From assembly GCA_036253055.1 (NCBI GenBank), contig GCA_036253055.1_4124.1: a stretch of DNA of 64,000 bases, one strand, 5' to 3'. Made by a program: the position numbers and the translations under genes. Shown here piece after piece: positions 8,863 through 21,928 of the stretch. The notes beneath the pieces were generated by a model. It did no database searches and was not told the DNA's origin. It was given only the letters and a program-made list of their open reading frames with translations. Every line of letters starts with the position of its first letter. Position 1 is the stretch's first letter. This DNA comes from a phage.

Positions 8863-8879
8863 GTTTCTTTCCTCTTAGT

Positions 8880-8899
8880 GGGGAGAATCATTTCTCCCC
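8880..8899 (-). promoter_or_regulatory. conserved 5'UTR hairpin (GGGGAGAA-loop-TTCTCCCC) between promoter and SD
   Basis: Perfect 8-bp inverted repeat; recurs with small variations downstream of most early promoters. Confidence 0.55.
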
Positions 8900-8911
8900 T
8901 TCATGTAAACT

Positions 8912-8939
8912 ATTATACAGTACTAGATTACATTGTCAA
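8912..8939 (-). promoter_or_regulatory. sigma70-like early promoter (TTGACA, 16 nt, TG-extended TATAAT)
   Basis: Minus strand TTGACA..CAGTACTGTATAAT; one of about 40 near-identical modules in the window. Confidence 0.6.
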
Positions 8940-8945
8940 TAGTTT

Positions 8946-9269
8946 TTATTCACCTTGTTTGAATTTAGTTTTCTCCATTGATTCCATGATTGCAACCAAT
9001 ACAGCATGGATCTCACTTAACGCGGCATCACTAAAAGCATTAATGAATAGGCAATCATTCTCGCGAATATTTTTAATGTACTTATCAGCAGTGGTTGCGA
9101 ATTCATTCAACGGCAGATCAAATGCTTTATCCCATAATGGATGGCGTAACTGTAACAGTACTGGATTATCACGGTCACCAGGTGAGAAAGTGCCTGTAAT
9201 GAAACATACACCAGGGATACTTTCGAATTGACAACGAACTTCTTTTGTGATAGTAGTATGAATATACAT
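8946..9269 (-). CDS. hypothetical protein
   Basis: 107 aa; SD GAGGA. Confidence 0.5.
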   Translation of the reverse strand: MYIHTTITKEVRCQFESIPGVCFITGTFSPGDRDNPVLLQLRHPLWDKAFDLPLNEFATTADKYIKNIRENDCLFINAFSDAALSEIHAVLVAIMESMEKTKFKQGE

Positions 9270-9296
9270 TTATTTTTATCCTCTATTAAATTAATA

Positions 9297-9485
9297 TTAC
9301 AGTTTATGAATCAATTCTTTATCTAAGCGATAGCGAACATTATTGATTGTAACTGCATTGTTTTTAATGCTACGCTGTACAGGTCCACCAGCAATAACAA
9401 ACGTTGCCTTATTGCCCCGAACGATGATAGCACTTCCAGGATTACCAAAATCATCTTGTACTAAAATACTTGATAAGTTTTGCAT
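9297..9485 (-). CDS. hypothetical protein
   Basis: 62 aa; SD AAGGAAAG; promoter and hairpin 9503-9561. Confidence 0.5.
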   Translation of the reverse strand: MQNLSSILVQDDFGNPGSAIIVRGNKATFVIAGGPVQRSIKNNAVTINNVRYRLDKELIHKL

Positions 9486-9533
9486 TTGTCTTTCCTTGTA
9501 GTGGGGAGAACTATTCTCCCCTTCATGTAAACT

Positions 9534-9561
9534 ATTATACAGTACTTAAAACTAAATGCAA
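9534..9561 (-). promoter_or_regulatory. sigma70-like early promoter (TTGCAT, 16 nt, TATAAT) for gene 9297..9485
   Basis: Minus strand TTGCAT-N16-TATAAT; UTR hairpin GGGGAGAACTATTCTCCCC at 9503-9521. Confidence 0.6.
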
Positions 9562-9564
9562 GTA

Positions 9565-9921
9565 CTAGGATAAAATCATTATAGGATATTCACAGTTAAT
9601 CAGTACTTCAAAACCAAAACTTTCATACCATTCTTTAAGATTAAACTCGTTATCTTCTCCCGTATCGCATTCTAAGATGATACAATCTGAATCATCGGCG
9701 GCATCAATAAAGGCATTCATTAATTCAGTACCTTCACCGTTACCGCGATTATCGGGATCAACATAAAGAGAATCAATAAACGCTACACGATCATAATCAA
9801 GATCCGGTGCAACAATGCCACGTTTAACAAACCAGTACTGCAATTGTGCTACTTTGCCTTGTACTTGATAGCCAGTGATCTCACCATTGTCTGTAGTACG
9901 CGTGATATGTTGTATACCCAT
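9565..9921 (-). CDS. GNAT-family N-acetyltransferase-like protein
   Basis: Motif-A-like DNRGNGEGTELMNAFIDAA; 118 aa; SD GAGGA. Confidence 0.5.
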   Translation of the reverse strand: MGIQHITRTTDNGEITGYQVQGKVAQLQYWFVKRGIVAPDLDYDRVAFIDSLYVDPDNRGNGEGTELMNAFIDAADDSDCIILECDTGEDNEFNLKEWYESFGFEVLINCEYPIMILS

Positions 9922-9984
9922 GATTTCAATCCTCAGTTAAGATATAAAATATTATACACTAACTAACAGCACTGTCAATACTTT

Positions 9985-10242
9985 TTATCTCATAGATCTA
10001 TGCCAACAATTACGGGGATTGCGTTTGAATATGCTATCATGATCAGCCTGGCAAGTGATGCAGTACTTACACCCCTTAACGGCCAGGCGGCGATTCTCAG
10101 GGATTTTATCGCCGCAGTCGAGGCAATGTATCAGTGATTCTATTTGTGCGTTAATTTGCGTTCTAGCGTGGTTTACAGCGGCCTGAATCACTGCGTTAAT
10201 CTCGTCTTGCTCGGCCCCGTCATTCGCGAATCCAACAGCCAT
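9985..10242 (-). CDS. TraR/DksA-family C4 zinc-finger protein
   Basis: CLDCGDKIPENRRLAVKGCKYCITCQ fits the TraR/DksA C4 zinc-finger pattern. Confidence 0.6.
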   Translation of the reverse strand: MAVGFANDGAEQDEINAVIQAAVNHARTQINAQIESLIHCLDCGDKIPENRRLAVKGCKYCITCQADHDSIFKRNPRNCWHRSMR

Positions 10243-10405
10243 TATTTTAACCTCATTATAAAAATACTATAGTACTGTAATGCTACAATAATACTACTAG
10301 TACTGATTTTATTCAAACCGTATGATACTACATATTCCCCAGCATTACCACGAATGGTAACGCCTTTGTACTTTCTATATAATTTCAACTACGTTTATTG
10401 CCTTT

Positions 10406-10476
10406 GATCAAGATTTGATCAGAATTATACGCCTTATGCTAAATTGATCCAGTACTTTTTTGATCATTTATTGATC
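10406..10476. promoter_or_regulatory. cluster of five TTGATC (GATC) sites in 71 bp
   Basis: GATC at 10406, 10417, 10446, 10462, 10473, each preceded by TT. Confidence 0.45.
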
Positions 10477-10571
10477 GATATTATATAGTTACATTTGTGC
10501 ACCCTATGGGTTAGTGACGTTCTCGTCTTGATGTAAGTATTATGCCAGTACTGGCATAATTTGTCAATAGA

Positions 10572-10769
10572 TTATTTTAACTTTTTTCTGTCATTGATTA
10601 ATGCTTTCAGTACTATACTAATGATCTGCAATGATTCATCAATGACTATAAAATTATTTTCTTTCATTAGATGATAGTTACCATTGATTGTATATTCTAA
10701 GGAGTACTGTTTACGTTTAATTTTTGATAATGTTTCTATTTGTTTTTGTACTGATTTCATGCTAATCAT
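10572..10769 (-). CDS. hypothetical protein
   Basis: 65 aa ORF. Confidence 0.45.
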   Translation of the reverse strand: MISMKSVQKQIETLSKIKRKQYSLEYTINGNYHLMKENNFIVIDESLQIISIVLKALINDRKKLK

Positions 10770-10874
10770 TGTTAAACGTCCTGTAACGCATTCTAACGAG
10801 TTAAACGGTTTAGTACTGGCATTGTATAGGGTAAAGGATTAAAGCCCACCAGCGTTAACCAGTGGGCTATAATC

Positions 10875-11018
10875 TTACATCTTGCGGATAATCTTAACAG
10901 TATCTTTCACCGATTTACCGTCTTGCTGACATTGTTCGATCATCGCGTATTGTTCTGCGGTCAGATCCTCGCCAGTTTTTGCCAGTACTGCGTCGATGAA
11001 TGAATCCAGTGCGATCAT
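10875..11018 (-). CDS. small hypothetical protein (47 aa)
   Basis: Not in track; hand-translated MIALDSFIDAVLAKTGEDL... Confidence 0.4.
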   Translation of the reverse strand: MIALDSFIDAVLAKTGEDLTAEQYAMIEQCQQDGKSVKDTVKIIRKM

Positions 11019-11117
11019 TTTGTTTCTCTCTTAGGTTAAGTTAACTACTGTTTATAAAACTTATTATACAGTACTATCAAACTATGTCAATATCTTTAAT
11101 AGTACTGGTAATATATT

Positions 11118-11297
11118 TTAGCGGTAGTCGTCGTATGCTTTATTCACCTGGCGAATGTAACTTTCAAAGGCTTCGTCTACCGTTTCATACTCCCGAACAT
11201 AATCACCATAGGAAACTACATACATCCCTTTTTGATCTTCAAACGTCATGATGATAGAATCCAGGCCGATGATTTCAGTTTTTGCGATAATAGCCAT
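11118..11297 (-). CDS. small hypothetical protein (59 aa)
   Basis: Not in track (59 aa); SD AAGGAA; hand-translated MAIIAKTEIIG... Confidence 0.45.
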   Translation of the reverse strand: MAIIAKTEIIGLDSIIMTFEDQKGMYVVSYGDYVREYETVDEAFESYIRQVNKAYDDYR

Positions 11298-11380
11298 TTT
11301 AGTATTCCTTAGTAGTGTAGTTGATAAAAGTTATTATGCCAGTACTATCAATCATTGTCAATAGTACTGTGATAATATTT

Positions 11381-11593
11381 TTAGTTAATGATAGTCAGTG
11401 TAAAATTGTAATCCCCTGCCTGGTATAGTACTTTGTCGCCGAATGTACCAACACGTTTCATATTGCAATAGATACCCATAACACTTTTTACATCTTTGAT
11501 ATTCCGAACGCCTGTGATATCCTTGTTGAAATTTTCATGTTCAGAAAATAAAACTTGTTTTGCATTTTTCAGTACAGTGCAGATATTAGCCAT
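11381..11593 (-). CDS. hypothetical protein
   Basis: 70 aa. Confidence 0.5.
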   Translation of the reverse strand: MANICTVLKNAKQVLFSEHENFNKDITGVRNIKDVKSVMGIYCNMKRVGTFGDKVLYQAGDYNFTLTIIN

Positions 11594-11686
11594 TTTGATT
11601 TCTCTCTGTTTGTGGGGAGAACTATTCTCCCCTTGATGTAACTTATTATACAGTACTATAATCTATTGTCAAACTATTTTTTAATA

Positions 11687-12028
11687 TTATTCAAAATCTT
11701 CTGGACCGGACTGATAATCATCTTCACCGTATGCACTTTCTAACTTCTCGCCAGTGTGATCATCAGTTAGTGAGTCATCCTCATAGTTCACGTCTACGCC
11801 TACAATGTAAAACTGGCTATCGTCTGGATCATTGAAATTAATTTTCTGAATGTTTACAATAACGGTATTGATGCCCAGGACACCGCCATCAGCAGTTACA
11901 AAGTACTGATATTTTTCACAACCGCCTGAATTGAAACCGTAATTAATTTCGGCCCGACCATCATTTAAACGCAGTGCCTGGGCGATGATTTCATTTTCAA
12001 AGTTAGATTGAGCAATTGAGATAGTCAT
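11687..12028 (-). CDS. highly acidic hypothetical protein (candidate DNA mimic)
   Basis: 113 aa; D/E-rich C-terminus DDSLTDDHTGEKLESAYGEDDYQSGPEDFE; SD AAGGAAAC. Confidence 0.5.
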   Translation of the reverse strand: MTISIAQSNFENEIIAQALRLNDGRAEINYGFNSGGCEKYQYFVTADGGVLGINTVIVNIQKINFNDPDDSQFYIVGVDVNYEDDSLTDDHTGEKLESAYGEDDYQSGPEDFE

Positions 12029-12238
12029 GATTTGTTTCCTTATTACCAGGGGAAACCGTTTCCCCTTTCGATGTAAAACATTATACGCTTATTGAGATAG
12101 TTTGCAAGTACTTTTTAAAAATAGTTTTCAGTACTCAAACATTATATAATAGATACACTTATGCACCCTGTGGGCTAGTGAGCTATCTCTCAATGAATAT
12201 ATAATAGCAAAATGGCTGACCGGAGTCAACCACTTTTT

Positions 12239-12382
12239 TCATTTATTTTTAGCTTTTAGAATCGCCGCCTTTCGCGTCATGCCTTGCTTGATGTATTCCT
12301 GTACTTTCGCTTTACGTGCATTCGCTTTATTTGCTTTCGTAAACGCCGAACAACTTTTATAATTTAAGCCTGTTGGATTCAT
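12239..12382 (-). CDS. small basic protein (47 aa)
   Basis: Not in track; K/A-rich; hand-translated. Confidence 0.35.
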   Translation of the reverse strand: MNPTGLNYKSCSAFTKANKANARKAKVQEYIKQGMTRKAAILKAKNK

Positions 12383-12472
12383 TTAAATCACCATAAAGAA
12401 TAGATAGGTTACTAACAATGCCGCGATCAATGCACCGACCAGGGCCGAACTATAGTAAGCTAATGATTTCAT
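12383..12472 (-). CDS. hydrophobic micro-protein (29 aa, single TM)
   Basis: Hand-translated MKSLAYYSSALVGALIAALLVTYLFFMVI; ATGA overlap with upstream gene. Confidence 0.3.
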   Translation of the reverse strand: MKSLAYYSSALVGALIAALLVTYLFFMVI

Positions 12473-12621
12473 TTTTTAGCCTGAAAGTAATGTTTAATTT
12501 GTGCGGCGGTCAGTGCACAATTACGCAGGAAGTTTTCTGTATAACTGCGGCGAGTACTGAAAGAGAATTGACCTTTGCCGTTACCGATAGTAACATCAAA
12601 CCGAGCGTTGTATTGTTTCAT
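12469..12621 (-). CDS. small hypothetical protein
   Basis: Start moved to ATG 12619-12621; track N-terminus is translated UTR hairpin. Confidence 0.45.
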   Translation of the reverse strand: MKQYNARFDVTIGNGKGQFSFSTRRSYTENFLRNCALTAAQIKHYFQAKK

Positions 12622-12707
12622 TTTGATTCTCCTGTTATTGGGGAGAACCATTTCTCCCCTCTATGTAAAACATTATACGCGTTTAAAAACTAATTGCAAG
12701 TATTATT

Positions 12708-12959
12708 TTAAACTTTGTATTTTAAACTTTGTGCGACTAATTTCGCACGGTCAATCATATTCTGCCATTTTTGGATCTCTTCTGGTAGAAAACGATATTC
12801 ACCAATTACAATAGTGATACACTGGTCAGCCTTGTCGATGTATGTGGTATCAATCTCTACTTGAACGGGTACACGTTCGCCGTACTCAGTCCCTGGGATA
12901 ATGCAATCATTATCATAAGTTACAGTAGTAGCAGTGTCTTTGATTAAAATTGTTTCCAT
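12708..12959 (-). CDS. hypothetical protein
   Basis: 83 aa; SD GAGGAAAG. Confidence 0.55.
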   Translation of the reverse strand: METILIKDTATTVTYDNDCIIPGTEYGERVPVQVEIDTTYIDKADQCITIVIGEYRFLPEEIQKWQNMIDRAKLVAQSLKYKV

Positions 12960-13041
12960 TATACTTTCCTCGTTAGGTGTAAGGGGAACGTTTTCCCCTT
13001 CATGTAAACTATTATACAGTACTAAAAACTAATTGCAAGTA

Positions 13042-13188
13042 CTATTTTTTAGATTTACGCAAACTTTCTACCATCTCAGGAGTAAGGCCAGGCGGGTAGG
13101 AAACCACTTCATCAACGAAACGTAAAGGGAATACCCCAGCGAAAGGTGAACGTGCTTTCTTAGTATTACTCTTTTTTGATGCTTTCAT
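13042..13188 (-). CDS. small basic protein (48 aa), paralog of 7497..7631
   Basis: Not in track; hand-translated MKASKKSNTKKARSPFAGV...; shares MKA..N.KKA..P.AG N-terminus with 7497..7631. Confidence 0.45.
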   Translation of the reverse strand: MKASKKSNTKKARSPFAGVFPLRFVDEVVSYPPGLTPEMVESLRKSKK

Positions 13189-13257
13189 TTCATATTCCTT
13201 AATTAGTGGGGAGAATCATTTCTCCCCTTCATGTAAAACATTATACGCGTTTAAAAA

Positions 13258-13467
13258 CTAATTGCAAGTACTATTTGAAAGTAAATGCTCATACGCTGCA
13301 TTAACTACGTTTTCAATAACCGACTGTACAGAAAGATCCCCCACGTCCTGGCTATAGTAGAAATCGCTTACAGTGGTGTCATCGTATGCAAATACTTTAC
13401 CAGGTACTGCATCAATCACATACATATTAACCTTTAAGATGTCGATCTTATCCTGTACAGTAAGCAT
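13258..13467 (-). CDS. hypothetical protein
   Basis: 69 aa; 5-nt gap from upstream gene. Confidence 0.5.
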   Translation of the reverse strand: MLTVQDKIDILKVNMYVIDAVPGKVFAYDDTTVSDFYYSQDVGDLSVQSVIENVVNAAYEHLLSNSTCN

Positions 13468-13472
13468 ATTAA

Positions 13473-13745
13473 TTAACCTTTTAAGTACTGGCTTAAGTAG
13501 TCTTGTTGATCTTCGGTGATTGCAGCCATCTTCCCTAGTACTGGATTGATGATATAATCCCCTGTAACGTCCTGTAACGCATTCTCAGGCGGTTTAACGG
13601 CTGGGGTAGCCATAGCCATTGCCTGGACTTGTTCGACGCTGTAACGCTCATAAAGGCGGCATTCTTCCGGTGTTAACATAGCATCAGTACGCTTCATCGG
13701 TTTAATGATGCTTTCGATCTCATTCAGTACTTGATTAACGTTCAT
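13473..13745 (-). CDS. hypothetical protein
   Basis: 90 aa; SD GGGGA. Confidence 0.5.
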   Translation of the reverse strand: MNVNQVLNEIESIIKPMKRTDAMLTPEECRLYERYSVEQVQAMAMATPAVKPPENALQDVTGDYIINPVLGKMAAITEDQQDYLSQYLKG

Positions 13746-13796
13746 GGTATAATCCCCAATATAAGCGGCCTAAATCGACCGCTAACGATGTTTTGA

Positions 13797-14066
13797 TTAA
13801 TAGGTGTATGGTTGACGCTCAAACAATGAATAGACGTTATACGCCCCGCTTATGGGCTTCGCTGGTAAATCAATTTTATATTGTTCACGCTTAAAGATAA
13901 TAAAACGGCAATTGTTTTTAACATCAAAATTGATTGAACGTTCCAGGAGTTTACCATCGTGCACAAATACAAGATAACCGCTTGGTACTTGTTTTGTAGA
14001 ACTGGTTGCAACCATAGACCGACGAACATGTGTACCTGCATCGATTAAAGTACTGATATTTTTCAT
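13797..14066 (-). CDS. hypothetical protein
   Basis: 89 aa; SD AGAGGA. Confidence 0.5.
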   Translation of the reverse strand: MKNISTLIDAGTHVRRSMVATSSTKQVPSGYLVFVHDGKLLERSINFDVKNNCRFIIFKREQYKIDLPAKPISGAYNVYSLFERQPYTY

Positions 14067-14146
14067 TTTACTATCCTCTTAAGTTGATTTAATTTCTTTC
14101 TCCTATGCAGACACTATATCAAAGTATCTGCATAAAGTAAAGCTAA

Positions 14147-14470
14147 TTAAAGATCTTTTTTGCGTTTAACATTCTGTACAGTACAATGCAACGGGATATT
14201 AAGATCATTGCACAAACGATAGAGGGAGGTTTCAACAGTATCAAGCCCGTCTACTGATTCCTTTAAGAGTGATACCGCCGTTTGTTGATATGCATCCTCA
14301 TAGCCATAAGTAAATGATTCAACCGCCAGATCATTCAAGCCGTTATCCAGTTCAACGCTTACATGACAAGAATGATAAGTATTGCCATATGAATCAGTCC
14401 AACGTTTACCGTCAACATTGATTGCATGGATTGCAGCCAGGGAAACGGTGTTGATGATAGTTTTAGCCAT
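14147..14470 (-). CDS. hypothetical protein, paralog of 7086..7409
   Basis: WTDSYGNTYHSC..FTYGY motif; SD AAGGAA. Confidence 0.55.
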   Translation of the reverse strand: MAKTIINTVSLAAIHAINVDGKRWTDSYGNTYHSCHVSVELDNGLNDLAVESFTYGYEDAYQQTAVSLLKESVDGLDTVETSLYRLCNDLNIPLHCTVQNVKRKKDL

Positions 14471-14561
14471 TTTAGTATTCCTTAAATTAATATGTGTCGT
14501 CTTGATAAAATCTATTATGCCAGTACTATCAAACTATGTCAATAGTACTGTGATAATATTT

Positions 14562-14774
14562 TTACTTACTTTCTTTCGCTGCTTTATATGTTGCCACTGC
14601 CATAACCACATCAGCACGAACAAAGTTTTTAACCGTGTCACTGTAATAATTGATCGCATCATCTATATCTGCGAACGTCCGATACATACCGCACCAAGAT
14701 ACTTTATAACCTTCTTTCACTTCTACCAGTTTAACGATAGTCTTGTTAACTTTGATTTTAGTAATGATAGCCAT
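14562..14774 (-). CDS. hypothetical protein
   Basis: Start moved to ATG 14772-14774; track N-terminus is translated UTR hairpin. Confidence 0.5.
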   Translation of the reverse strand: MAIITKIKVNKTIVKLVEVKEGYKVSWCGMYRTFADIDDAINYYSDTVKNFVRADVVMAVATYKAAKESK

Positions 14775-14861
14775 TTTAGTTTCCTCATTATCAGGGAGAA
14801 CCATTTCTCCCCTTGATGTAATGTATTATACTTTATTCGATTTACTTTGCAAGTACTTTTT

Positions 14862-15089
14862 TTAATTTAATTCATCCAGGCAAAGGATACGCTCAACGCC
14901 CAAATCAGTTAAACTAATCGACGGCACTTGATAGGTTTCAATGTATGCTACACTTGCCCACTGACCGAACTCATTAACGGCCCAGGTATTCATTGCATTT
15001 TGCAATTCCGCACCTGCCTTGTTAGTAATGACTGCAACTACTTGTTCGTTGCCAGTAGTACCAGATACGCGAGTAATGATAATAGCCAT
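14862..15089 (-). CDS. hypothetical protein
   Basis: Track N-terminus MFYIERGK is translated promoter; start moved to ATG 15087-15089. Confidence 0.5.
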   Translation of the reverse strand: MAIIITRVSGTTGNEQVVAVITNKAGAELQNAMNTWAVNEFGQWASVAYIETYQVPSISLTDLGVERILCLDELN

Positions 15090-15319
15090 TGTTTTGATTC
15101 CTTTGATTTGGAAGGAGAACCGTTTCCCCCTCTCGATGTAAAACATTATACGCTAATCTCTTAATCGTGCAAGTACTTTTTATTACTTTTTGCAAAATAC
15201 TTTAAACGCTCTCAATCGCATTCTAACGACCTTAACGCCACCAGCTAGGGCGATGTATCAGATAATCAGTTTAATGCGTTAGAATCGATTCTAGGCGGTG
15301 CTGGTGGACTGGAATACTA

Positions 15320-15350
15320 CAGACACAAAAAAGCCCACTGTTTAAGGTGG
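15320..15350 (-). terminator. rho-independent terminator after gene 15375..15857
   Basis: Minus strand AGCCCACC-loop-GGTGGGCT followed by TTTTTTGTGT. Confidence 0.6.
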
Positions 15351-15374
15351 GCTAGTGATTCAGTACTTTAATTG

Positions 15375-15857
15375 TTATGCTTCAACTTTGCGATGAGCTT
15401 CGATCCATTCCTCGCGAGTCATACCGCTTTCTTTGATAGCGTCCAGTACTACCGCAATGCAGTTACCGCGTACAGGAATCAAATGTTCTTCCCCGTTATC
15501 AAGGACAACAGTAACACGTTCTTGAATCCATTTTTTAGGCTTAGATTCCGGCTTATCTTCACCGTACTTAACCGCCAGGGCTTTATGTGCCATTTCAATA
15601 ACCACTTCCAGATCTAAACCAGACACCGCCGCCTGAATACTTTCTATTGTTGCTTGCAGTTCTGCTTCACGGGCTTTTTTCTGTTCTTCCAGTTCTGCTA
15701 CCTTTTTGGCTTGTAGTTCTTTCGCTTCACTGTAAGCAATGTTAAAATTGTTGCGTACTGCTTTCATGGTATCATTATCCAGGTCAGCCAGCAATTCAGC
15801 AGCAATCACAGTATCGTTAGAAATCAGTGCTTTCAGAAATGATTTTACATTAGCCAT
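15375..15857 (-). CDS. possible H-NS-like nucleoid-associated protein
   Basis: N-terminal coiled coil (ELQAKKVAELEEQKKAREAELQ); C-terminus IPVRGNCIAVVLDAIKESGMTREEWI loosely resembles the H-NS DNA-binding region; start at ATG 15855-15857 (SD GAGGA). Confidence 0.35.
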   Translation of the reverse strand: MANVKSFLKALISNDTVIAAELLADLDNDTMKAVRNNFNIAYSEAKELQAKKVAELEEQKKAREAELQATIESIQAAVSGLDLEVVIEMAHKALAVKYGEDKPESKPKKWIQERVTVVLDNGEEHLIPVRGNCIAVVLDAIKESGMTREEWIEAHRKVEA

Positions 15858-16049
15858 TTTATAAATCCTCAATTAAAGTTTAAGTTAGTTTATCAAAGTT
15901 TGTTTGACGTGTCCAGTTTTTCATTCGACTTACTGGCGGTCTACTTAATGTTCCCCGTCTTGATGTAATACATTCTACGCTTTTCCCTGGTAATGTCAAC
16001 TACTTTTTTAAAACTATTTTCAAAGTATACCAGTACTACGATACTACAA

Positions 16050-16085
16050 AAACAAAAAAGCCCACTGTATAAGTGGGCTAGTGAT
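16050..16085 (-). terminator. rho-independent terminator after gene 16097..16396
   Basis: Minus strand AGCCCAC-loop-GTGGGCT followed by TTTTTTGTTTTTG. Confidence 0.6.
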
Positions 16086-16096
16086 TCAGTACTATA

Positions 16097-16396
16097 TTAT
16101 AAACAATTAATTACGCCAGTGAATGTAACTTTCTCTGTATCCATTACAGTAACCGAACCGCGTTTACTTTTTGCATCGTAATAGATGGTCGTGCTACCCT
16201 GATCATCTTCTTCATGGTACGGGCCATTAGCAAACATTGCAGGGGCCAGTTCCAGGGATTTGGTAACGATCTCAGCCGTTTCCTCGTTAGTCATTGCAAC
16301 AGTGCACTGAATGAATTTTTCTTTCTGTACATCAACGGAAGCGTTAACAGCGAAAGAGGAAACAGATAAAGCCAGGGCGATGATTGCAGTTTTCAT
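16097..16396 (-). CDS. secreted protein (signal peptide)
   Basis: N-terminus MKTAIIALALSVSSFAVNA; SD AAGGA; terminator downstream at 16050-16085. Confidence 0.55.
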   Translation of the reverse strand: MKTAIIALALSVSSFAVNASVDVQKEKFIQCTVAMTNEETAEIVTKSLELAPAMFANGPYHEEDDQGSTTIYYDAKSKRGSVTVMDTEKVTFTGVINCL

Positions 16397-16506
16397 TTGT
16401 ATATCCTTTGTTAGTACTAGGGAGTATTCCCGATTAGATGTAAAACATTATACGCGTTTAAAAACTATTATCAAGTACTTTAATATAAAAGTATTTGAAA
16501 AAAAGT

Positions 16507-16535
16507 CTTGACAACTGCATCCAGTACTGGCATAA
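16507..16535 (+). promoter_or_regulatory. plus-strand sigma70-like promoter (TTGACA, 17 nt, CATAAT) driving a short non-coding transcript
   Basis: TTGACA 16507-16512, CATAAT 16530-16535; followed by CCCACAGGGTGC motif and hairpin 16610-16640; no ORF. Confidence 0.45.
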
Positions 16536-16641
16536 TATCTACATAAAGACGAGATAGTCACTAACCCACAGGGTGCATAGATCCGTCTATTAAATGATTC
16601 AGTACTGCAAAATAAAGGGGATCGTTTGATCCCCCTGATTA

Positions 16642-16863
16642 TTACTTAGTAAGATATAAACAAAAATCACCTTTCTTTGATACTCCGCAAGTGTAACGCG
16701 ATGAATAGTTAGAAACGTCTTGTACTTCTGCAATGACGAGCGTATCATCATTTAACTCATCGCAAAAACATACTGCGGGATCTTCTACGCCGATATTGTC
16801 GGCATGTTCCCGCATAGATTTAACCAGTGCTTCAAGCTGGGAAAGAGTAGTGATATTAGCCAT
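16642..16863 (-). CDS. hypothetical protein
   Basis: 73 aa; SD TAAGGAG. Confidence 0.55.
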   Translation of the reverse strand: MANITTLSQLEALVKSMREHADNIGVEDPAVCFCDELNDDTLVIAEVQDVSNYSSRYTCGVSKKGDFCLYLTK

Positions 16864-16947
16864 TGTAAAACTCCTTATTAGTGGGGAGAACCATTTCCCC
16901 CTTGATGTAAACTATTATATAGTACTGGAAACTATTTGCAAGTACTT

Positions 16948-17136
16948 TTAATTAAATTCCATAAAATCATTTTCAACGTGCACAACAATCTGATTATTTT
17001 TAAAGGACGCAGAAAACTCTATACAATCATAAACCGCTTTTTCTGTTACCAGACTATGAGCACCAATCGGATTAATTGGGGATTGAATTGTTTCAATCTC
17101 GTTACCCTGCTCATTTACAATTAAAATATTAAACAT
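16948..17136 (-). CDS. hypothetical protein
   Basis: 62 aa; SD AGGAG. Confidence 0.5.
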   Translation of the reverse strand: MFNILIVNEQGNEIETIQSPINPIGAHSLVTEKAVYDCIEFSASFKNNQIVVHVENDFMEFN

Positions 17137-17210
17137 TGTCGTTACTCCTGGATAGTGTTAACTCGATGTAAACAATTATACAGTACTGGAAACTAATTGC
17201 AAGTACTTTT

Positions 17211-17414
17211 TTAATTTAATTGCTTTAAAACAAAATCAAAGACACCACGCACATCATTGATCATCGCCTGGCGGTTAGCAGGTAACGCATCAGGATCGCC
17301 ACTATCCCAGGCATTAATGAAGCCACTTAAATCATGGAATACTTTATTCCGTAACCCGATCAACTGCAATTCTTTTTCTTCAAGCTCTTTGATACGTTCA
17401 ATTAAATCACTCAT
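17211..17414 (-). CDS. hypothetical protein
   Basis: Start moved to ATG 17412-17414 (SD GAGGA). Confidence 0.45.
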   Translation of the reverse strand: MSDLIERIKELEEKELQLIGLRNKVFHDLSGFINAWDSGDPDALPANRQAMINDVRGVFDFVLKQLN

Positions 17415-17431
17415 TAGATAATCCTCAGTAC

Positions 17432-17716
17432 TCAATTGTAAGATCCACATCGTTCGCAGTAGTGTTCATCTTCCTCATCTTCTACCACTTGCCCGATGAA
17501 ATGATCTACTTTCGCTTTCAGGTTATTATAATCGTTTTCTACTTCCTGTAAACGTTCCTGGTAGTATTCCAGGGCTTCAACAAATGCAGCTTCCTCTGAT
17601 TTTGCTTGCATCGATAAATTCATCCCGCGTGTTTCATCATATAGCCAAAAACCATCGGTGCATTCAGTTATAGATAACGTGTTAGTCAGTACTTTACTAT
17701 TAATTACTTTGCTCAT
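17432..17716 (-). CDS. hypothetical protein
   Basis: 94 aa; C-terminal CERCGSY; SD GAGGA. Confidence 0.5.
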   Translation of the reverse strand: MSKVINSKVLTNTLSITECTDGFWLYDETRGMNLSMQAKSEEAAFVEALEYYQERLQEVENDYNNLKAKVDHFIGQVVEDEEDEHYCERCGSYN

Positions 17717-17801
17717 TAGATAATCCTCATTAAAGGCGGGAACTATTCCCGCTCTCGATATAAAGTATTATACGTTAATCTAATTACTTTGCAAGTACTT
17801 T

Positions 17802-18038
17802 TTAGTGCTTTTTATAAAACATCTCAGCGGTGATATTTTTACCCGTTGGTTGTACTTTATCCAGGATCTTTTGGTGTGCACTACGCCCGAAAGAATAAGA
17901 ACCGTAAACCGTTAGCCAGTAGTCGCCATTTTGGTTTACATGTACCGCACAATAAGGAACGCCCCGCGAATCGTCACCAATGAAGTGTGATACTGTACCC
18001 GTTACGTTTGGCGTTGTAGTTTTGATTTGTTCGATCAT
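17802..18038 (-). CDS. hypothetical protein
   Basis: Start moved to ATG 18036-18038 (SD AGGAG); track start lies in the UTR hairpin. Confidence 0.5.
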   Translation of the reverse strand: MIEQIKTTTPNVTGTVSHFIGDDSRGVPYCAVHVNQNGDYWLTVYGSYSFGRSAHQKILDKVQPTGKNITAEMFYKKH

Positions 18039-18096
18039 TTCTCTTACTCCTGGGATATAGGCGGGAACCATTCCCCGCCATTGATTCAGTACTGAA

Positions 18097-18708
18097 TTAA
18101 TATTCGATAGATTCTACTACATCGTCGATAACGTTAAATTGATATTCGTTACCCTCAATCAGTCCTACAATGTTTTCAGTAGTAAACTGGTCTTCATAAG
18201 CATTTTCTAAATCACGGTACAGCTTACAAGATAATTCTCGGATAGTATCAGTCAGTAAGTTTTCCAGATCCTCAGCCAATGCAGCCTGTTTTACAGTTAA
18301 ATCAGTGTAGCGAGTATCAACGCAACCGCCTACCGTGTTTTCGTGAGCGTAGCGTGATTGGGAACGTTCTACACTCATTTCCAAATCATCTTCGTTCAAC
18401 AGGTGACGGATGGAACGATATTTCGTTAACGCCTTAACCTTGCGTAAAAACTTCTCAGCGTCAACGTGGTCAGTACTGATTGATGCACCGTCACCTTGCG
18501 ACCAAAAACCACTGTATTGCAATTCAGCTTCATCTATGCCGTATTCTGGCAGTACTGTTTCTTTATAGTATTCCAGTACTGATTCAGCAAAGAAATTATC
18601 CTCACTTGCACGTTCCCGATCCCGAACCAGTTCGATAGCCGCCGCTTGTTGTTCTGCGTTCAGTTCAGAAAAATCCATAACGAAAGTAGTAGTAGTGATA
18701 GTTTTCAT
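18097..18708 (-). CDS. acidic hypothetical protein
   Basis: 203 aa; acidic; SD GAGGG. Confidence 0.5.
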   Translation of the reverse strand: MKTITTTTFVMDFSELNAEQQAAAIELVRDRERASEDNFFAESVLEYYKETVLPEYGIDEAELQYSGFWSQGDGASISTDHVDAEKFLRKVKALTKYRSIRHLLNEDDLEMSVERSQSRYAHENTVGGCVDTRYTDLTVKQAALAEDLENLLTDTIRELSCKLYRDLENAYEDQFTTENIVGLIEGNEYQFNVIDDVVESIEY

Positions 18709-19007
18709 TTTGTAACCCTCATTCAGTAGTTGATGTAAGTATTATACGCTTTTAAAAACAATTGTCAAACTATTTTATCAGGGGAGTTTTTCGTGTGCCT
18801 TACTCCTGGGCTACTTAACGGGAAGTTACTTATTTCGTTCCCCGTCCTGATGTAAAACATTATACGCCTTTAAACATAGTTTGCAAGTACTTTTTGAAAA
18901 TAGTTTTTATCTCTTTCATATAGATACATTCCCGCACCCTATGGGCTATCGCCTTGTGTCCGGCTTGTAAGTATTATCTCACTAAGCCGGATAACGGTCA
19001 AGTACTT

Positions 19008-19274
19008 TTATTCAAGTACTGCAATCTTTTTAGTACTGTACACAGTAACGCGGTTGCCCTTGCGGTCGTGCTTTATTTCTACCACGCGACGCGATACACT
19101 ATCAGGACGCTTTAAAGCAGATAGCCAGTACTGAATTGATCGGGCTGTACTTTGCTTTACTACGGCCCAACGTTTACCACGTTCAGATTGTACGCCCATA
19201 TCTTTAAACGTTGCCCCGTCCTGGCGTGCTGCAATCCGAGCTAGTTCACGCGTCGCAAAATATGTAATAGTCAT
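19008..19274 (-). CDS. hypothetical protein, paralog of 6591..6986
   Basis: Start moved to ATG 19272-19274 (SD AGGGG); shared FATRELARIAAR and HDRKGNRVTVYS motifs. Confidence 0.5.
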   Translation of the reverse strand: MTITYFATRELARIAARQDGATFKDMGVQSERGKRWAVVKQSTARSIQYWLSALKRPDSVSRRVVEIKHDRKGNRVTVYSTKKIAVLE

Positions 19275-19357
19275 GCTGTTACCCCTATCGTTGATGTACA
19301 AAAAGAACTTTATTATAAAGTACTATCACCGTGCAATAGTACTTTTAATCTATTCTC

Positions 19358-19597
19358 TTACATTCCAACCATCGCCGCACGGATCGCAGTAGTACTATAC
19401 TTAAAGCCGTCCGGTGTTTTATCTTGTCCAGTCTGTTCTAAAAATAGCATCATATGACGGGCCGCATCATTACGATTAGTGTTAGCGGCAATAAAGTCCT
19501 GGGCCAACCGGTATAATGATTCGTCGTTATTAATCCAAAGGCTTACATTCCATTGAGTTTTGTTTTTGTGTCCTAAGAACATTTTTGATTTAGCCAT
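19358..19597 (-). CDS. hypothetical protein
   Basis: Start moved to ATG 19595-19597; track N-terminus is translated promoter. Confidence 0.45.
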   Translation of the reverse strand: MAKSKMFLGHKNKTQWNVSLWINNDESLYRLAQDFIAANTNRNDAARHMMLFLEQTGQDKTPDGFKYSTTAIRAAMVGM

Positions 19598-19691
19598 TTT
19601 TAAATCCTCTTTATTATAGTGGGGAACTATTCCCCACCTGATGTAAAACATTATACGCTTTTAAACTTAGTTTGCAAGTACTTTATTAAAC

Positions 19692-20054
19692 TTATTCGTA
19701 AATCTTGCCACTGTCAGCCCATACCAGGAAACGAGGCATATTATCCCATGCATCTTGTTTTAAGTTTAAGCCGTGTAATACTTCTGTACTTTCCATTCCT
19801 GGTACTGGCTTGCTATACACTGCAAACATTTCGCCCATGTACTGATAAGCCATCGTTAAATCAGTCTGGATCATCTTATGGATCATTGCATCCAGCATTG
19901 CAGTAGCGGCATACTGTTCACGCTTAAGCGGCAGCATTGCAATCAATTCCCGATAAGCTGCAATGTGAATCCGTACAGTCTCAGCGGGAAGATCTTTCAT
20001 CTCTTCACGGAAAGAAACCAGGTTAAGCATGATAGTATTGATTTGAGTCGCCAT
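19692..20054 (-). CDS. hypothetical protein
   Basis: Start moved to ATG 20052-20054; track N-terminus MFYIESGN is translated promoter. Confidence 0.5.
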   Translation of the reverse strand: MATQINTIMLNLVSFREEMKDLPAETVRIHIAAYRELIAMLPLKREQYAATAMLDAMIHKMIQTDLTMAYQYMGEMFAVYSKPVPGMESTEVLHGLNLKQDAWDNMPRFLVWADSGKIYE

Positions 20055-20417
20055 CGTTTTAATCTCTTTTAAAGTGTAGCGGGAAGTGTTCCCGCTCTCG
20101 ATGTAAAACATTCTACACCTTTCCCAATACTTTGCAAGTACTTTCTACAAATACTTTTAAAATAGTTTTCTTTCTATATAGGGGAACTATCTTTCAGTAC
20201 TGCAACCATCCAGGGGAACTATCTTTCTATATAGTAGTACTATGATTCAGTACTGAATCAATCCACCAAATCATCCCGATACCCCGTAAAACGGCCTCAG
20301 ACGCATTCTAACGCATTAATACACCTAAGCTATACATTTGCACCATTCCAATCATTCCAGGGCTTTACAGGCCGTTTAAACGCGTTAAATTATTTTCAAT
20401 TATTTTGTTTTTAGCTA

Positions 20418-20445
20418 TTGACTCAGTACTAAAAAAGCGTATAAT
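20418..20445 (+). promoter_or_regulatory. plus-strand sigma70 consensus promoter (TTGACT, 16 nt, TATAAT) in ORF-free region
   Basis: Perfect -10 TATAAT 20440-20445; no ORF downstream. Confidence 0.45.
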
Positions 20446-20880
20446 TACTACATAGACGCGAGAAAGCGGATACCCCAGGGGGTGGGAAGATCCGTCCAAA
20501 ATTCAAGATATAAAAAAAGGATACACTCCCGCACCCTAGCAGGTTAACGCACTTTCTCAGTACTGAATTATAGTACCATAGTCCGGCCCAGGATGGCAAG
20601 CAAATTAATTAAAACTTTTTTCATCCAGGGTATTGCTTTATTTTTCCAGTACTGTATAATAGTTCCATCAAGTCGAGAAAGACTCAAGCCCACCGGGTGC
20701 ATAGTTACGCCCAAAATTCAGTACTGAAAAAATTTTTAAAAATATCCGTCCAGGCCGTTGACATTGCCCCCAGTTTATAAGATAATGATTCCAGATTCAG
20801 AAAAATCTAACTCCAGATACTGCGGGGAAACTATCCCCACGCGGTAGGGGAACTATTGGAAAAAACAAAATAAAATTTTG

Positions 20881-21030
20881 ATTTAGCCGTCTATACTTCC
20901 AGACGTGTAACCATCTAGCCGTTTAGCCGTCCAAACGTCTAGCAATCCAGCCATCCAGAAATCTAGCCGTTTAGCCGTCTAGATGGATAGCCATCTTTAC
21001 TTCCAGACTTCTGGAGGGCTAGACATATCT
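20881..21030. repeat. iteron-like direct repeats (TAGCCGT units; 17-mer CTAGCCGTTTAGCCGTC twice)
   Basis: TAGCCGT at 20884, 20916, 20924, 20964, 20972; ACTTCCAGAC twice; in ORF-free region. Confidence 0.5.
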
Positions 21031-21701
21031 ACGTCCAAAATCCACCCAGGGTAACTACGCCCAAAATCCGTCAGTACTATACCATAGATCTATCTTTTGA
21101 AAGGGAGTATTCAGTACTGTCATCATAGCCCTCACTATGTTACCCTAGGAGGATGAAGACTATCATGTAGTACTGAATACTGTTAGAGGGAATCCACCAG
21201 CACAAGCTGGTGGCATAATGCTTTAGATTAAAATCAGTACTGACACCATTCTGTTAATATCAGTACTGTTATTACGATTTTCATATGAGGTTCAAAAAGA
21301 TGTACCACCACAGGAGGAACTATCTTTTCTGTACTGTCTCACGACAGGAGGTAGAGTAAATGAATTGTTCGCAGCAACTCATCACCCTATGTAGAACATT
21401 ATACAGTACTGAATCATAATGTCAATAGCTTTCTTTCATTATTCAGTACTGAAATCGTATAATCTGTATCGCTACAAAACTCATTATATCCCACAAATCC
21501 TATATGTCCCAACGTAAATTTCAACTTTCGAAGATCCAACTTTTATTTCATAGGTACTCCAAAATTTTTAGGATCGAGATTTAGGATGGAGTACTAACCA
21601 ACTTTTTGCTGGAGCCTCAAGGGGTAATTGAATTTTACCCCGAAGGGTAAAAGGGTAATTGAAATTAAGGTGAAAGTAATAATTCAGTACTAATCATTGC
21701 G

Positions 21702-21928
21702 TGATTACTTTTGATTACATTTGATGTAATTTGCAAAATGGAAAAGGAGCTTGGAAACTACAAAGTACGGCAGACTTCCTCTGCCTACTTAGTGGCATAT
21801 CAGTACTGCTACGTTCTTGATTAAACGTGAACATTCCTGTACTCTAGTACTCACTACTGATCACTACAGTGATTATAAATGATTACTTAAATGTTTATAT
21901 ATGATTACTTATGACTACCTATGATTAC
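21702..21928. repeat. cluster of TGATTAC direct repeats
   Basis: TGATTAC at about 21702, 21713, 21880, 21902, 21922, plus variant ATGACTAC. Confidence 0.4.

Follow-up and report, generated by a model that had tools for sequence, protein, structure and literature searches.

The sequence GCATTCTAACG is the core of a bipartite non-coding DNA module of 27-36 bp. Four to five copies of this module were present in the window (the whole stretch of 64,000 nucleotides that was analysed), and each of them lay within a direct terminal repeat of about 20 kb. On the transcribed, genome-forward strand the module reads [TTAAACG]-CGTTAGAATGCG-WTNNAGRN-CGTTTWA, with CGTTAGAATGCG-N8-CGTTTWA as its short form. 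With the exception of one degenerate copy located in a gene, the copies occupied spacers that follow a terminator or precede an early promoter. The same module was found in the T5-like phages, and it is most likely a sequence-specific protein-binding site, here put forward as a candidate, on the DNA that enters the cell first. The pair of Chi sites adjacent to the motif is a feature separate from the module and is part of a polar cluster. Taken as a whole, this account (a shared module, a protein-binding site on first-entering DNA, and a Chi pair as a separate feature) is offered tentatively, as a possibility that falls somewhat short of probable.

The window derives from an Asteriusvirus jumbo coliphage. 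Its terminal repeat is represented by a single collapsed copy, the boundaries of which were inferred by homology, from a blastn comparison with vB_Ec-M-J (annotated DTR 1-21525) and from comparison of the boundary sequences. For relatives of this phage, DTRs of 20.7-21.5 kb have been reported, and one of these was confirmed by restriction digests. The genome-forward strand corresponds to the minus strand of the window; on it the repeat runs from the left physical end of the genome, near 21789, to an inner boundary near 1620. Measured from that left end, the module copies lie at 1.5, 6.5, 8.2 and 11 kb. The coordinates of these and the neighbouring features are presented in Table 1. The repeat consists of duplicated cassettes arranged as a mosaic, and the early promoter downstream of the 15.2-kb site is a member of a stereotyped promoter cassette family (families D1-D6). 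Similar cassettes, termed promoter-early stem-loop (PeSL) cassettes, were reportedly described in T4-type phages by Arbiol, Comeau and Krisch in 2010. In these, small early genes are said to be flanked by a stereotyped promoter and a stem-loop, and the breakpoint of gene replacement between relatives is said to fall at the cassette, as in the window phage; the comparison applies to the surrounding promoter cassettes and not to the GCATTCTAACG module. No tRNA or Rfam family was detected in the window, and the only small ORF in the spacer was a 30-aa ORF starting with TTG, for which there was no support.

Table 1. Features of the terminal repeat and of the module copies in the window
Feature	Position	Strand	Sequence or remark
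Direct terminal repeat, single collapsed copy, ~20 kb	1620..21789	-	assigned by homology
ACGCATT cluster, n=3	1643..1772	+	AATGCGT on forward strand = module centre
Module copy S1	10769..10804	-	TTAACT-CGTTAGAATGCG-TTACAGGA-CGTTTAA; 11-mer 10788-10798 (+); 34.7 bits
Module copy S4, degenerate, S1-like	13560..13595	-	CCTGAGAATGCG-TTACAGGA-CGTTACA; in ORF 13473..13745; 34.9 bits
Sigma70-type early promoter	15145..15172	-	TTGCAC-N16-TATAAT; serves gene with ATG at 15089
Module copy S2a	15199..15234	-	TAAGGT-CGTTAGAATGCG-ATTGAGAG-CGTTTAA; 11-mer 15218-15228 (+); 34.1 bits
Chi	15238..15245	-	5'-GCTGGTGG-3' on genome-forward strand; orientation for RecBCD from right end
Module copy S2b, partial, inverted	15273..15294	+	AATGCGTTAGAATCGATTCTAG, including palindrome TAGAATCGATTCTA
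Chi, opposite orientation	15300..15307	+	for RecBCD entering left end, 6.5 kb away
Intrinsic terminator of upstream gene 15375..15872	15332..15353	-	AGCCCACCTTAAACAGTGGGCT then TTTTTTG
Promoters either side of S3, divergent	20137-20110 and 20418-20445	- and +	
Module copy S3	20284..20319	-	TTAATG-CGTTAGAATGCG-TCTGAGGC-CGTTTTA; 11-mer 20303-20313 (+); 37.6 bits
Seven further Chi, co-oriented with that at 15238	3304, 4767, 6175, 8117, 9385, 10846, 21194		
Back-to-back Chi pair	21194..21213	.	CCACCAGC-ttgt-GCTGGTGG; ~0.58 kb from left end

The exact 11-mer was present at three sites on the plus strand when the window was scanned (Table 1), as stated in the original prediction, although the coordinates given there were off by 2-9 nt. 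The reverse complement noted at 15277 was a partial copy with 9/11 bases only, in which CGTTAGAAT (15277-15285) is followed by CG where a full inverted copy needs GC. The count of the motif alone was weakly significant, because three sites with at most one mismatch were found compared with 0.79 expected, and at least three were also present in 4 of 100 shuffled sequences. The true signal of the motif is its position and not its count. In a complete 352-kb relative, all five copies of the 9-mer (both strands) were located inside the terminal repeat, which accounts for 6% of that genome (P about 8e-7). All the sites had been placed in the interval from a terminator to the early promoter that follows. 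This arrangement was found for the 15.2-kb site and not for the other two: the 10.8-kb site has a terminator-like hairpin on one side and a gene start on the other with no promoter between them, and the 20.3-kb site has divergent promoters on both sides.

A cluster of ACGCATT variants at 1640-1780 was also confirmed, with copies at 1643, 1711 and 1766. Across the whole window, three such copies within 130 bp would arise by chance with a probability of about 1e-4. The first copy lies within the repeat, 24 nt from its inner boundary, and two of the three copies are kept in both vB_Ec-M-J and ECO103. No copy in the cluster scored as a full module with the weight matrix described below, for which reason a link between the cluster and the module is conjectural.

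The conservation of the module copies was compared among the Asteriusvirus relatives. S3 forms an island of about 63 nt that was invariant in 7/8 genomes, whereas its flanks were variable and rich in indels, and this pattern favours the reading as a protein-binding site. The 11-mer was intact in 8/8 relatives at S1 and also at S3. The core of S2a was mutated in three of the eight, and that of S2b, whose likeness to S3 extends over about 30 nt, was intact in seven and deleted in G17. Within Asteriusvirus, the flanks of S1 and S2 were conserved as well as the motif itself, and there was therefore no footprint contrast at these sites. S2a is situated about 45 nt upstream of the -35 hexamer of the early promoter (TTGCAC, 15172-15167). 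S1 is 47 nt downstream of a Chi-containing hairpin (10845-10868), and its linker includes AGGA 9 nt before the ATG at 10769. S4 was detected by a second route, as a match to the 12-mer with two mismatches.

A weight matrix was built from 12 T5-like sites alone and then run on the window, where four sites scored 34-38 bits and the next best match scored less than 12 bits. The same matrix detected three sites in the whole 352-kb relative, all of them in the repeat. Among 2.9 million viral contigs, the pattern CGTTAGAATGCG-N8-CGTTT was found in 34 stretches, 32 of which belonged to T5-like contigs or to phage 121Q, with two others elsewhere. One phage contig that carried the module was L180. A scan of the collection with GATAAGTCTGTKGATAA, which was intended to give an unbiased T5-like sample, returned mostly chance matches. 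The module was not found in E. coli chromosomes at the sensitivity of BLAST, and only a weak plasmid match was obtained.

In the left terminal repeat of T5, the copy at 9344-9379 (T5 st0) lies within the annotated 'injection stop signal' (9140-10144). More than 300 T5-like phages carried the module, once in each terminal repeat and at the left-hand margin of 'Repeat Region 3', a conserved untranslated stretch annotated as the injection stop signal (Heusterspreute 1987; bioRxiv 10.1101/866236). At least 80% of the 105-nt T5 block was present in 313 phage records. The left half of the module was invariant across Tequintavirus and Epseptimavirus, with flanks that were only about 75% identical, and the conservation of the T5 module region was stronger than that of the neighbouring genes. 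The fixed positions and the variable linker positions of the module coincide in the two phage families, and its orientation relative to the left genome end is equal for T5, S1, S2a, S3 and S4. A second non-coding element, of 20 nt, was common to the T5-like phages and Asteriusvirus only.

T5 and the window phage are alike in that the same module of 27-36 bp is located in non-coding DNA after a terminator, in the same orientation, and within a long direct terminal repeat holding the first-expressed genes, with repeat boundaries that were assigned by homology in the window phage. They differ in the arrangement of the copies. In T5, palindromes and paired DnaA boxes come after the one full copy, which is close to the repeat's inner end, and there are two shortened copies at 5282 and 6278. 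In contrast, the window phage has four to five dispersed copies at 1.5-11 kb from the end, this combination of inner repeat end, palindromes and paired DnaA boxes was not found, and no DnaA box (TTWTNCACA) occurred within 1 kb of any window copy. In T5 the module is located 9.35 kb into a repeat of about 10 kb, and the corresponding distance is 2.5 kb for fENko-Kae01 and 11.2 kb for Muenster. Owing to this variation between phages, the module is a poor fit to a single stop where the repeat ends. Two-step injection has been demonstrated in T5 only, and the arrest has been assigned there to the region and not at the nucleotide level.

The sites had originally been suggested to bind a phage regulator. 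Protein binding remains the best reading of the module, which is long, bipartite and conserved in sequence rather than in structure, but a phage origin of the regulator is not required, because the site is shared by two unrelated families with no proteins in common in these regions. No protein common to the T5 repeat and the window repeat was detected by tblastx, in a comparison that covered the longer and recognisably similar proteins encoded within the repeats. As the families share no proteins in these regions, the putative binding protein is probably host-encoded. We know of no convincing match of the module to the sites of IHF, Fis, CpxR, ArcA, PurR and the LacI family or RcsB, or to an H-NS nucleation site. 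In both Asteriusvirus and T5, the module would act as double-stranded DNA, presenting three CGT-centred 10-bp units along one face of the helix to a protein that recognises the sequence. It may be part of a cis-acting apparatus for handling the DNA that arrives first in the cell, and could serve to pause or anchor this DNA in the manner proposed for the T5 stop signal. Alternatively, the module might insulate the early transcription units. Some observations speak against the protein-binding reading: at the sensitivity of BLAST the module is missing from E. coli chromosomes, DnaA boxes like those flanking the T5 copy are lacking in the window phage, S2a is mutated in three relatives and S2b deleted in one, the flanks of S1 and S2 show no footprint contrast, and one copy is located in a gene.

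Two further genera of jumbo phages have, in their terminal repeats, palindromic variants of the module that form hairpins. These intrinsic terminators of a bidirectional type, in Alcyoneusvirus (Muenster) and Munch-like phages, resemble the module in their outer arms (TAAAACG and CGTTTTA), in their location in the terminal repeat after the end of one gene and before the following promoter and, in one variant, in the linker TCCTGTAA, which is the same as that of S1. Unlike the window and T5 copies, which do not fold and follow a separate canonical terminator, they are almost perfect palindromes with a strong fold on the transcribed strand. A stable hairpin with a U-tract, as in an intrinsic terminator, was present in the fENko-Kae01 and Muenster variants and absent from the window and T5 copies. 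As the element resembles an RNA terminator hairpin in two other genera, an origin of the module as a relic is possible. A palindromic terminator hairpin would then have been spread by duplication, gene conversion and cassette exchange among co-infecting phages, and would persist in Asteriusvirus as a functionless, decaying relic or recombination scar. This is considered unlikely. The perfect hairpin versions in Muenster and fENko-Kae01, located exactly between the end of one gene and the promoter that follows, have a folding energy of -18 kcal/mol (z -5 to -6) and fold more strongly on the transcribed strand, the S3 flank of 121Q looks converted to S2a-like sequence, and the mosaic of cassettes, the degradation of S2a in three relatives, the deletion of S2b in G17 and the burial of S4 in a gene would all be in keeping with decay. 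A relic does not account for the invariant left half in Tequintavirus and Epseptimavirus, in which the hairpin is not maintained, nor for the identical pattern of fixed and free positions in both families, the conserved S3 island amid variable flanks or the intact 11-mer of S1 and S3 in every relative. These observations favour the protein-binding site.

A second inverted repeat had been noted next to the motif. Its arms, CCACCAGC (15238-15245) and GCTGGTGG (15300-15307), were present, but they are not a partner structure of the motif; on the basis of sequence, they are a pair of E. coli Chi sites. No compensatory change maintaining the inverted arrangement was seen in relatives, and the Chi at 15300 was lost in ph0011, 121Q and G17, where it is replaced by GCTAGTGG or GCTGACGG. 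The exact Chi octamer was over-represented in the repeat, with 10 copies compared with 0.13 expected (P about 4e-16) and a density of 0.52 per kb compared with 0.05 per kb elsewhere (about 10-fold), and it was the commonest GC-rich octamer of the repeat. The orientation of the copies was consistent with RecBCD entry from the DNA ends, eight facing the right end and two, at 15300 and 21206, the left end. The polarity in fENko-Kae01, which belongs to another genus, was 12+2, the two reverse copies being located at 0.5 and 7 kb, and the back-to-back Chi pair of the window phage has a counterpart at 484-503 of the fENko-Kae01 terminal repeat. With such a cluster, RecA-dependent recombination between the two repeat copies could be initiated by RecBCD whichever genome end it enters.

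For phage P1 and its relatives, Chi clusters have been described in the terminal redundancy (Subramaniam and Smith). The window phage resembles P1 in its Chi density (about 0.5 per kb, which is two to three times that of E. coli) and in the concentration of Chi, in both orientations, at the ends of the injected linear DNA; in P1 as well, the proposed role is RecBCD/RecA recombination between the terminal repeats. P1 differs in its headful packaging and variable ends, whereas the ends of the window phage are fixed, its Chi polarity is strong (8 to 2), and the back-to-back pair near its left end (about 0.5 kb away) is kept in another genus. The module might act together with Chi in processing the terminal repeat, either in its duplication during packaging, in the resolution of concatemers or in recombination between copies. 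The restriction of the module to terminal repeats in four phage groups would fit such a role, as would the proximity of Chi to S1 (47 nt), S2a (9 nt), S2b (15 nt) and, in 121Q, also S3, and the position of the ACGCATT cluster 24-150 nt inside the inner boundary. However, no Chi adjoins the T5 copy, the nearest being 660 and 1220 bp away, and no module copy is located at the repeat ends themselves, and this role is judged improbable.

The motif had also been proposed as a class of promoters for a non-sigma70 polymerase or sigma factor, with a distinct temporal class of downstream genes. This proposal was not upheld. The module is not a promoter class, because it has no copy outside the repeat (five 9-mers and three matrix matches in the 352-kb relative, all inside) and no -35 element, and the T5 copy has no downstream gene. 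For sigma70, TAGAAT was present, but the hexamers 16-18 nt upstream matched TTGACA at 3/6 positions at most; as an extended -10 element, the TG was 3 nt and not 1 nt upstream of TAGAAT; and no site was listed at the motifs in a promoter consensus scan. An unconventional promoter may be envisaged, in which TAGAAT in CGTTAGAATGCG serves as the -10 element, followed by a GC-rich discriminator, and in which host polymerase with a phage or host co-factor makes a few delayed transcripts from the repeat. TAGAAT on the transcribed strand is the -10 variant of two cassette promoters in the window, and the gene at 10572..10769, downstream of S1, lacks a cassette promoter of its own. There is nevertheless little chance that the module works in this manner: neither a -35 element nor a TGn extension is at the proper distance, copies beyond the repeat are lacking, S2b would fire antisense into the upstream gene, the T5 module is followed by no gene for about 1.5 kb with the next gene on the other strand, and the genes that follow S2a and S3 are already served by ordinary sigma70 promoters immediately downstream of these copies.

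One possible host protein is DeoR. The E. coli DeoR operator is TGTTAGAA-TTCTAACA or TGTTAGAA-TACTAACA, DeoR forms loops between distant sites, and its effector is deoxyribose-5-phosphate. If GTTAGAAT were a half operator, DeoR loops could hold the entering repeat DNA until breakdown of the host DNA yields deoxyribose-5-phosphate as the inducer. The motif core and the half-site are equal at 8/9 positions (CGTTAGAAT compared with TGTTAGAAT), DeoR uses several distant sites, S2b is a split palindrome (CGTTAGAA-TCGA-TTCTAGG), and host DNA is degraded by pre-early functions of T5. Against this, only half-sites were found: the complete 16-bp palindrome (TGTTAGAA-TWCTAACA) was absent, and no TTAGAA-N0-6-TTCTAA occurred in the window, the T5 repeat or fENko-Kae01. 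The full operator was accordingly rejected for the window. The GTTAGAA part is exactly the part that is lost in fENko-Kae01 and Muenster, so that variants from other genera lack the bases that match, and the likeness was found after many regulators had been considered, with a chance probability estimated at roughly 0.1-0.2. Control by DeoR is therefore regarded as very unlikely.

That the inverted pairs at 15218-15308 fold into a structured RNA or a DNA cruciform is hardly credible, and this reading was rejected: the arms are ordered A-B-A'-B', which would permit a pseudoknot, and the minimum-free-energy fold pairs both motif copies, but the fold of the 141-nt spacer was no better than that of shuffled sequences (z = -0.38), one arm is altered by 2-4 bases without compensation in TH47 and CMSTMSU, the Chi pair is broken in 121Q, ph0011 and G17, and there is no Rfam match. 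For single modules, z ranged from -0.1 to -2.2, and one-sided changes in relatives break the predicted module pairs.

The Chi cluster would extend to virulent jumbo phages the idea developed for P1, namely that Chi is selected in the terminal redundancy for RecBCD-dependent end joining, and it may be relevant to how phages considered for therapy survive RecBCD and exchange gene cassettes. The nature of the T5 stop signal, which together with Repeat Region 3 was reportedly reviewed by Davison in 2015, is a question that goes back decades, and the region is dense with repeats. The recurrence of a block of about 30 bp and of the 20-nt element without the DnaA boxes and palindromes of T5 provides a short candidate sequence, and recurrence of the block is confined to the terminal repeats of unrelated jumbo phages. 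It might be supposed that entering DNA is held or handed over at the module in a stepwise delivery, by means of a single enterobacterial host protein, DeoR being one candidate, that is exploited by both T5-like siphoviruses and Rak2-like jumbo myoviruses. This is a speculation in which we place little confidence; if it were true, Asteriusvirus would deliver its 350-kb genomes in stages, and comparison across the families would pinpoint the long-sought T5 stop signal. The module shared with T5 suggests that jumbo coliphages with 20-kb repeats rich in small early genes may share a T5-like control of the DNA that enters first.

The stretch is from an Asteriusvirus jumbo coliphage, a relative of PBECO4, 121Q and G17. 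Direct terminal repeats of 20.7-21.5 kb are present in relatives (that of one relative was verified by restriction digests), and the annotated repeat of vB_Ec-M-J was mapped by homology onto the window. On this mapping, the physical left end of the genome would fall near 21789, with the repeat reaching inward to about 1620. The minus strand of the window is the genome-forward, transcribed strand, and the repeat is dense with small genes on this strand. The original prediction of a recurrent 11-mer with an inverted copy held for three exact copies of GCATTCTAACG on the plus strand, but only the 9-mer ATTCTAACG is matched at 15277; the second inverted repeat (CCACCAGC at 15238, GCTGGTGG at 15300) and the ACGCATT variants (1643, 1711 and 1766) were present as described. 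The 11-mer count was marginally unusual (three matches against 0.79 expected, equalled in 4 of 100 shuffles). In ECO103 4-12-1, a relative assembled as a complete 352-kb genome, all five occurrences of the 9-mer over both strands were in the repeat, a region that makes up 6% of the sequence (P ~8e-7). The motif is thus non-random because of its position, not its count, and chance occurrence without positional bias was not what was found. Every copy in the window is likewise confined to the terminal repeat. The proposed promoter function is unsupported, and a general promoter was rejected for this phage.

Forward-strand alignment of the copies spans ~36 nt, comprising a TTAAACG-like box, CGTTAGAATGCG, an 8-nt linker (WTNNAGRN) and CGTTTWA, with three CGT-centred units spaced 10 bp. 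We refer to this element as the module, with copies S1, S2a, S3 and S4 and a partial copy, S2b. Across eight Asteriusvirus genomes, the 11-mer was intact in all eight at both S1 and S3; S2a was mutated in three and S2b deleted in one. At S1 and S2, conservation extends into the flanks to the same degree as in the motif, leaving no footprint contrast there. S3 is an invariant 63-nt island with variable, indel-rich flanks. The entire S2 spacer was 95-100% identical in most relatives, above its flanking genes, and a switch of downstream gene between two phage groups falls within it. No credible ORF was found in this spacer. It folded no better than shuffled sequence (z = -0.38), and no compensatory change maintaining the inverted arrangement at 15218-15308 was found in the eight genomes, so a structured RNA was rejected in this phage. 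No Rfam or tRNA model matched anywhere in the window.

Coordinates of the module copies and associated features (window positions unless T5 st0 is named)
Feature	Position	Strand	Remark	Basis
11-mer GCATTCTAACG, exact	10788-10798, 15218-15228, 20303-20313	+		sequence
S1	10769-10804		same subtype as S2a	alignment
S2a	15199-15234		same subtype as S1	alignment
S3	20284-20319		same subtype as S2b	alignment
S2b, partial, inverted	15273-15294		same subtype as S3	alignment
S4, degenerate, S1-like	13560-13595		inside a gene	alignment and weight matrix
T5 st0 105-nt block	9302-9406			BLAST
T5 st0 module	9344-9379		inside left terminal repeat (first-step-transfer DNA)	
ATCTCGTAGGGCGGCAATG, 19-20 nt	2899-2918, 3217-3235	-	start of early transcripts, directly 3' of -10 element	
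Back-to-back Chi pair, one site reversed	21194-21213		0.58 kb from left end	
Reversed Chi	15300		faces left end; lost in three relatives	
Perfect TTGACA-N16-TATAAT	21425-21398	-	leftmost ~1.7 kb	
Conserved TTGACT-N16-TATAAT	20418-20445	+	leftmost ~1.7 kb	
GATACA-core repeat starts	3336, 5257, 8124, 10479, 12143, 18914, 20511	+		

In 2.9 million viral contigs, CGCATTCTAACG-N2-3-TTAA matched mostly T5-like contigs (103-122 kb), plus 121Q. With the stricter CGTTAGAATGCG-N8-CGTTT, 34 stretches matched. These were T5-like or 121Q except for one in L184, where the match is probably due to chance, and one in the phage contig L180. In the latter (IMGVR_UViG_3300012983_000486; 11.6 kb, GC 43%), CGTTAGAATGCG-TTGTATGA-CGTTTTCA was observed at ~6037-6061, intergenic and 5' of a gene; a BLAST search of the phage collection returned no informative relative. 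The 105-nt T5-like block was found by BLAST in 356 phage records of Tequintavirus and Epseptimavirus, with Escherichia, Salmonella, Klebsiella and others as hosts. The T5 module lies within the annotated 'injection stop signal' (9140-10144), ~65 nt past the terminator that closes the last rightward pre-early gene; the DnaA box cluster follows ~75 nt after the module. Davison described this part of T5, the untranslated 'Repeat Region 3', as conserved above its neighbouring genes, with many sub-elements of unknown function and a DnaA-membrane model offered as a proposal only; the stop signal is still called undefined in papers from 2023 and 2026.

Among T5-like phages, neither the left half (AAA-TWAAACGCGTTAGAATGCG) nor the CGTTTTA box varies; the linker does, with variants such as ATTGAGAG and TTACAGGA common to T5-like phages and the jumbo phage. 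Scanned with a weight matrix derived solely from 12 T5-like sites, the window gave exactly S3, S4, S1 and S2a (34-38 bits), everything else being at or below 12 bits, and the whole of ECO103 4-12-1 gave three sites, all in the repeat. The T5 module and these four copies have the same orientation relative to the left genome end. Shortened relatives of the module, CGT(C/T)AGAAAGCG-TTTTAGGC(G/C)GCTTATTTT, were observed in T5 st0 at 5282 (+) and 6278 (-), mutually inverted and bordering the divergent pre-early promoter region on both sides; they are probably the published IRB/IRB' repeats.

A second sequence, ATCTCGTAGGGCGGCAATG, is identical to T5 st0 5020-5039 in Repeat Region 1, and there too a promoter-like TTGCGC-N17-TATTAT precedes it. 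Its occurrences among the 2.9 million viral contigs were limited to contigs of T5-like size (103-124 kb), to 121Q and to one contig of 17.9 kb. With the module, at least two short non-coding terminal-repeat elements are therefore common to both families, either exchanged between them or under the same constraint.

The exact motif was absent from the Klebsiella jumbo phage fENko-Kae01, of another genus, but the T5-only matrix detected a 35-bit variant in its terminal repeat (2465-2500). BLAST relatives of this region were Munch-like Salmonella jumbo phages, the Alcyoneusvirus phages RaK2, K64-1 and Muenster (with the Muenster hit inside the PhageTerm-predicted terminal repeat) and several T5-like phages. 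A gene end and the next promoter enclose the element in fENko-Kae01 and Muenster, where it is a near-perfect palindrome, and its RNA folds strongly on the transcribed strand (-18 kcal/mol, z -5 to -6), the other strand being clearly weaker. This strand bias and placement suggest an RNA terminator hairpin. The T5 and window copies had no stable fold (z -0.1 to -2.2) and sit after separate canonical terminators with their sequence retained, which indicates that what is constrained in T5-like phages and Asteriusvirus is the sequence and not its pairing.

The second inverted repeat consists of Chi sites, GCTGGTGG being the Chi octamer of E. coli. The terminal repeat contains 10 of them where 0.13 would be expected (P ~4e-16), half in coding sequence and half in spacers. 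Chi is its most frequent GC-rich octamer, with a density of 0.52 per kb; outside the repeat, the genome of a relative has 0.05 per kb. Eight of the ten read GCTGGTGG on the forward strand, which under the Chi orientation rule is the one active for RecBCD arriving from the right genome end; the two reversed sites, being opposite, face the left end. The same design was observed in fENko-Kae01 (12 forward sites, and two reversed at 0.48 and 7.0 kb), where the 0.48-kb site is likewise in a back-to-back pair. A parallel is phage P1, whose 50 Chi sites cluster in the terminally redundant regions and have been proposed to drive circularisation that depends on RecBCD. Three further GCTGGTGG (32431, 32686 and 32944), in a glycine-rich coding region of GGT-GGT-GCT-GGT repeats, are probably a codon by-product, not selected Chi.

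Each small minus-strand gene of the repeat carries a stereotyped sigma70 early cassette, AAAAAGTAC-TTGCAA/TTGACA-N16-TATAAT-GTTTTACATC, after which come a 5' hairpin (GGGGAGAAnnnTTCTCCCC) and a ribosome-binding site. About 25 copies were found between 2468 and 20150 (e.g. 12635-12712 and 15099-15182), and it is at the cassette that gene replacements among relatives have their breakpoint, as seen at 15091-15130. These cassettes recall the promoter-early stem-loop cassettes known in T4-type phages. The palindrome AGTACT occurred 267 times in the 64 kb (~22 expected; e.g. 20195, 20248, 20558, 21235 and 21261) and CAGTACTG 56 times (0.7 expected). A relative had 919 AGTACT in 352 kb, with 6.6 per kb inside its terminal repeat and 2.4 per kb outside, and fENko-Kae01 had 126 in 23 kb; the T5 terminal repeat had none over 3.1 kb (7802-10906). 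Some overlap the -35 element (AGTAC-TTGCAA) or provide an extended -10 TG (AGTACTG-TATAAT), but promoters account for the excess only in part, because many copies are inside genes. AGTACT is similar to the central part of the SlmA binding site. A seven-copy repeat of ~30-100 nt, with the core GATACAnTTnnGCACCCTRTGGG, could be a small RNA or terminator family; on the transcribed strand, some copies come after a hairpin that includes a TTGACT -35 element, and Chi abuts two of them (3304 and 8117). The leftmost ~1.7 kb of the genome (within 20112-22045) had no ORF of at least 60 aa, several strong promoter-like sites on both strands and no Rfam match, and may encode non-coding RNAs. In this ORF-free stretch, ~0.8 kb from the left end, a tandem array of ~19 8-bp units, CGTCTAGC/CGTTTAGC (forward strand GCTAAACG), was observed at 20888-21039.

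The module is a specific, conserved cis element limited to terminal repeats and common to two unrelated phage families. Its 27-36 bp of bipartite, helically phased units would most simply be a protein-binding site, the best available reading. The observations of the original prediction were largely right. No protein common to the T5 and window repeats was detected by tblastx and both families infect Enterobacterales, which makes a candidate host protein more economical. No chromosomal copy of the module was found in E. coli at BLAST sensitivity, and no DnaA boxes lie beside the window copies. Such a binding site might serve to pause or anchor entering DNA, as proposed for the T5 signal, and the scattering of the copies argues against a single stop at the repeat end; alternatively, the module might insulate early transcription units. 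As binder, DeoR is only a lead: the core matches eight of nine positions of one operator half (TGTTAGAA-TTCTAACA), but there is no full palindrome and the matching half is not retained in the other genera. No prior description of the T5 tie or the Chi architecture was found in open-access papers and preprints, and the interest lies in this unforeseen tie to the T5 stop-signal region, together with the Chi architecture of the terminal repeat.
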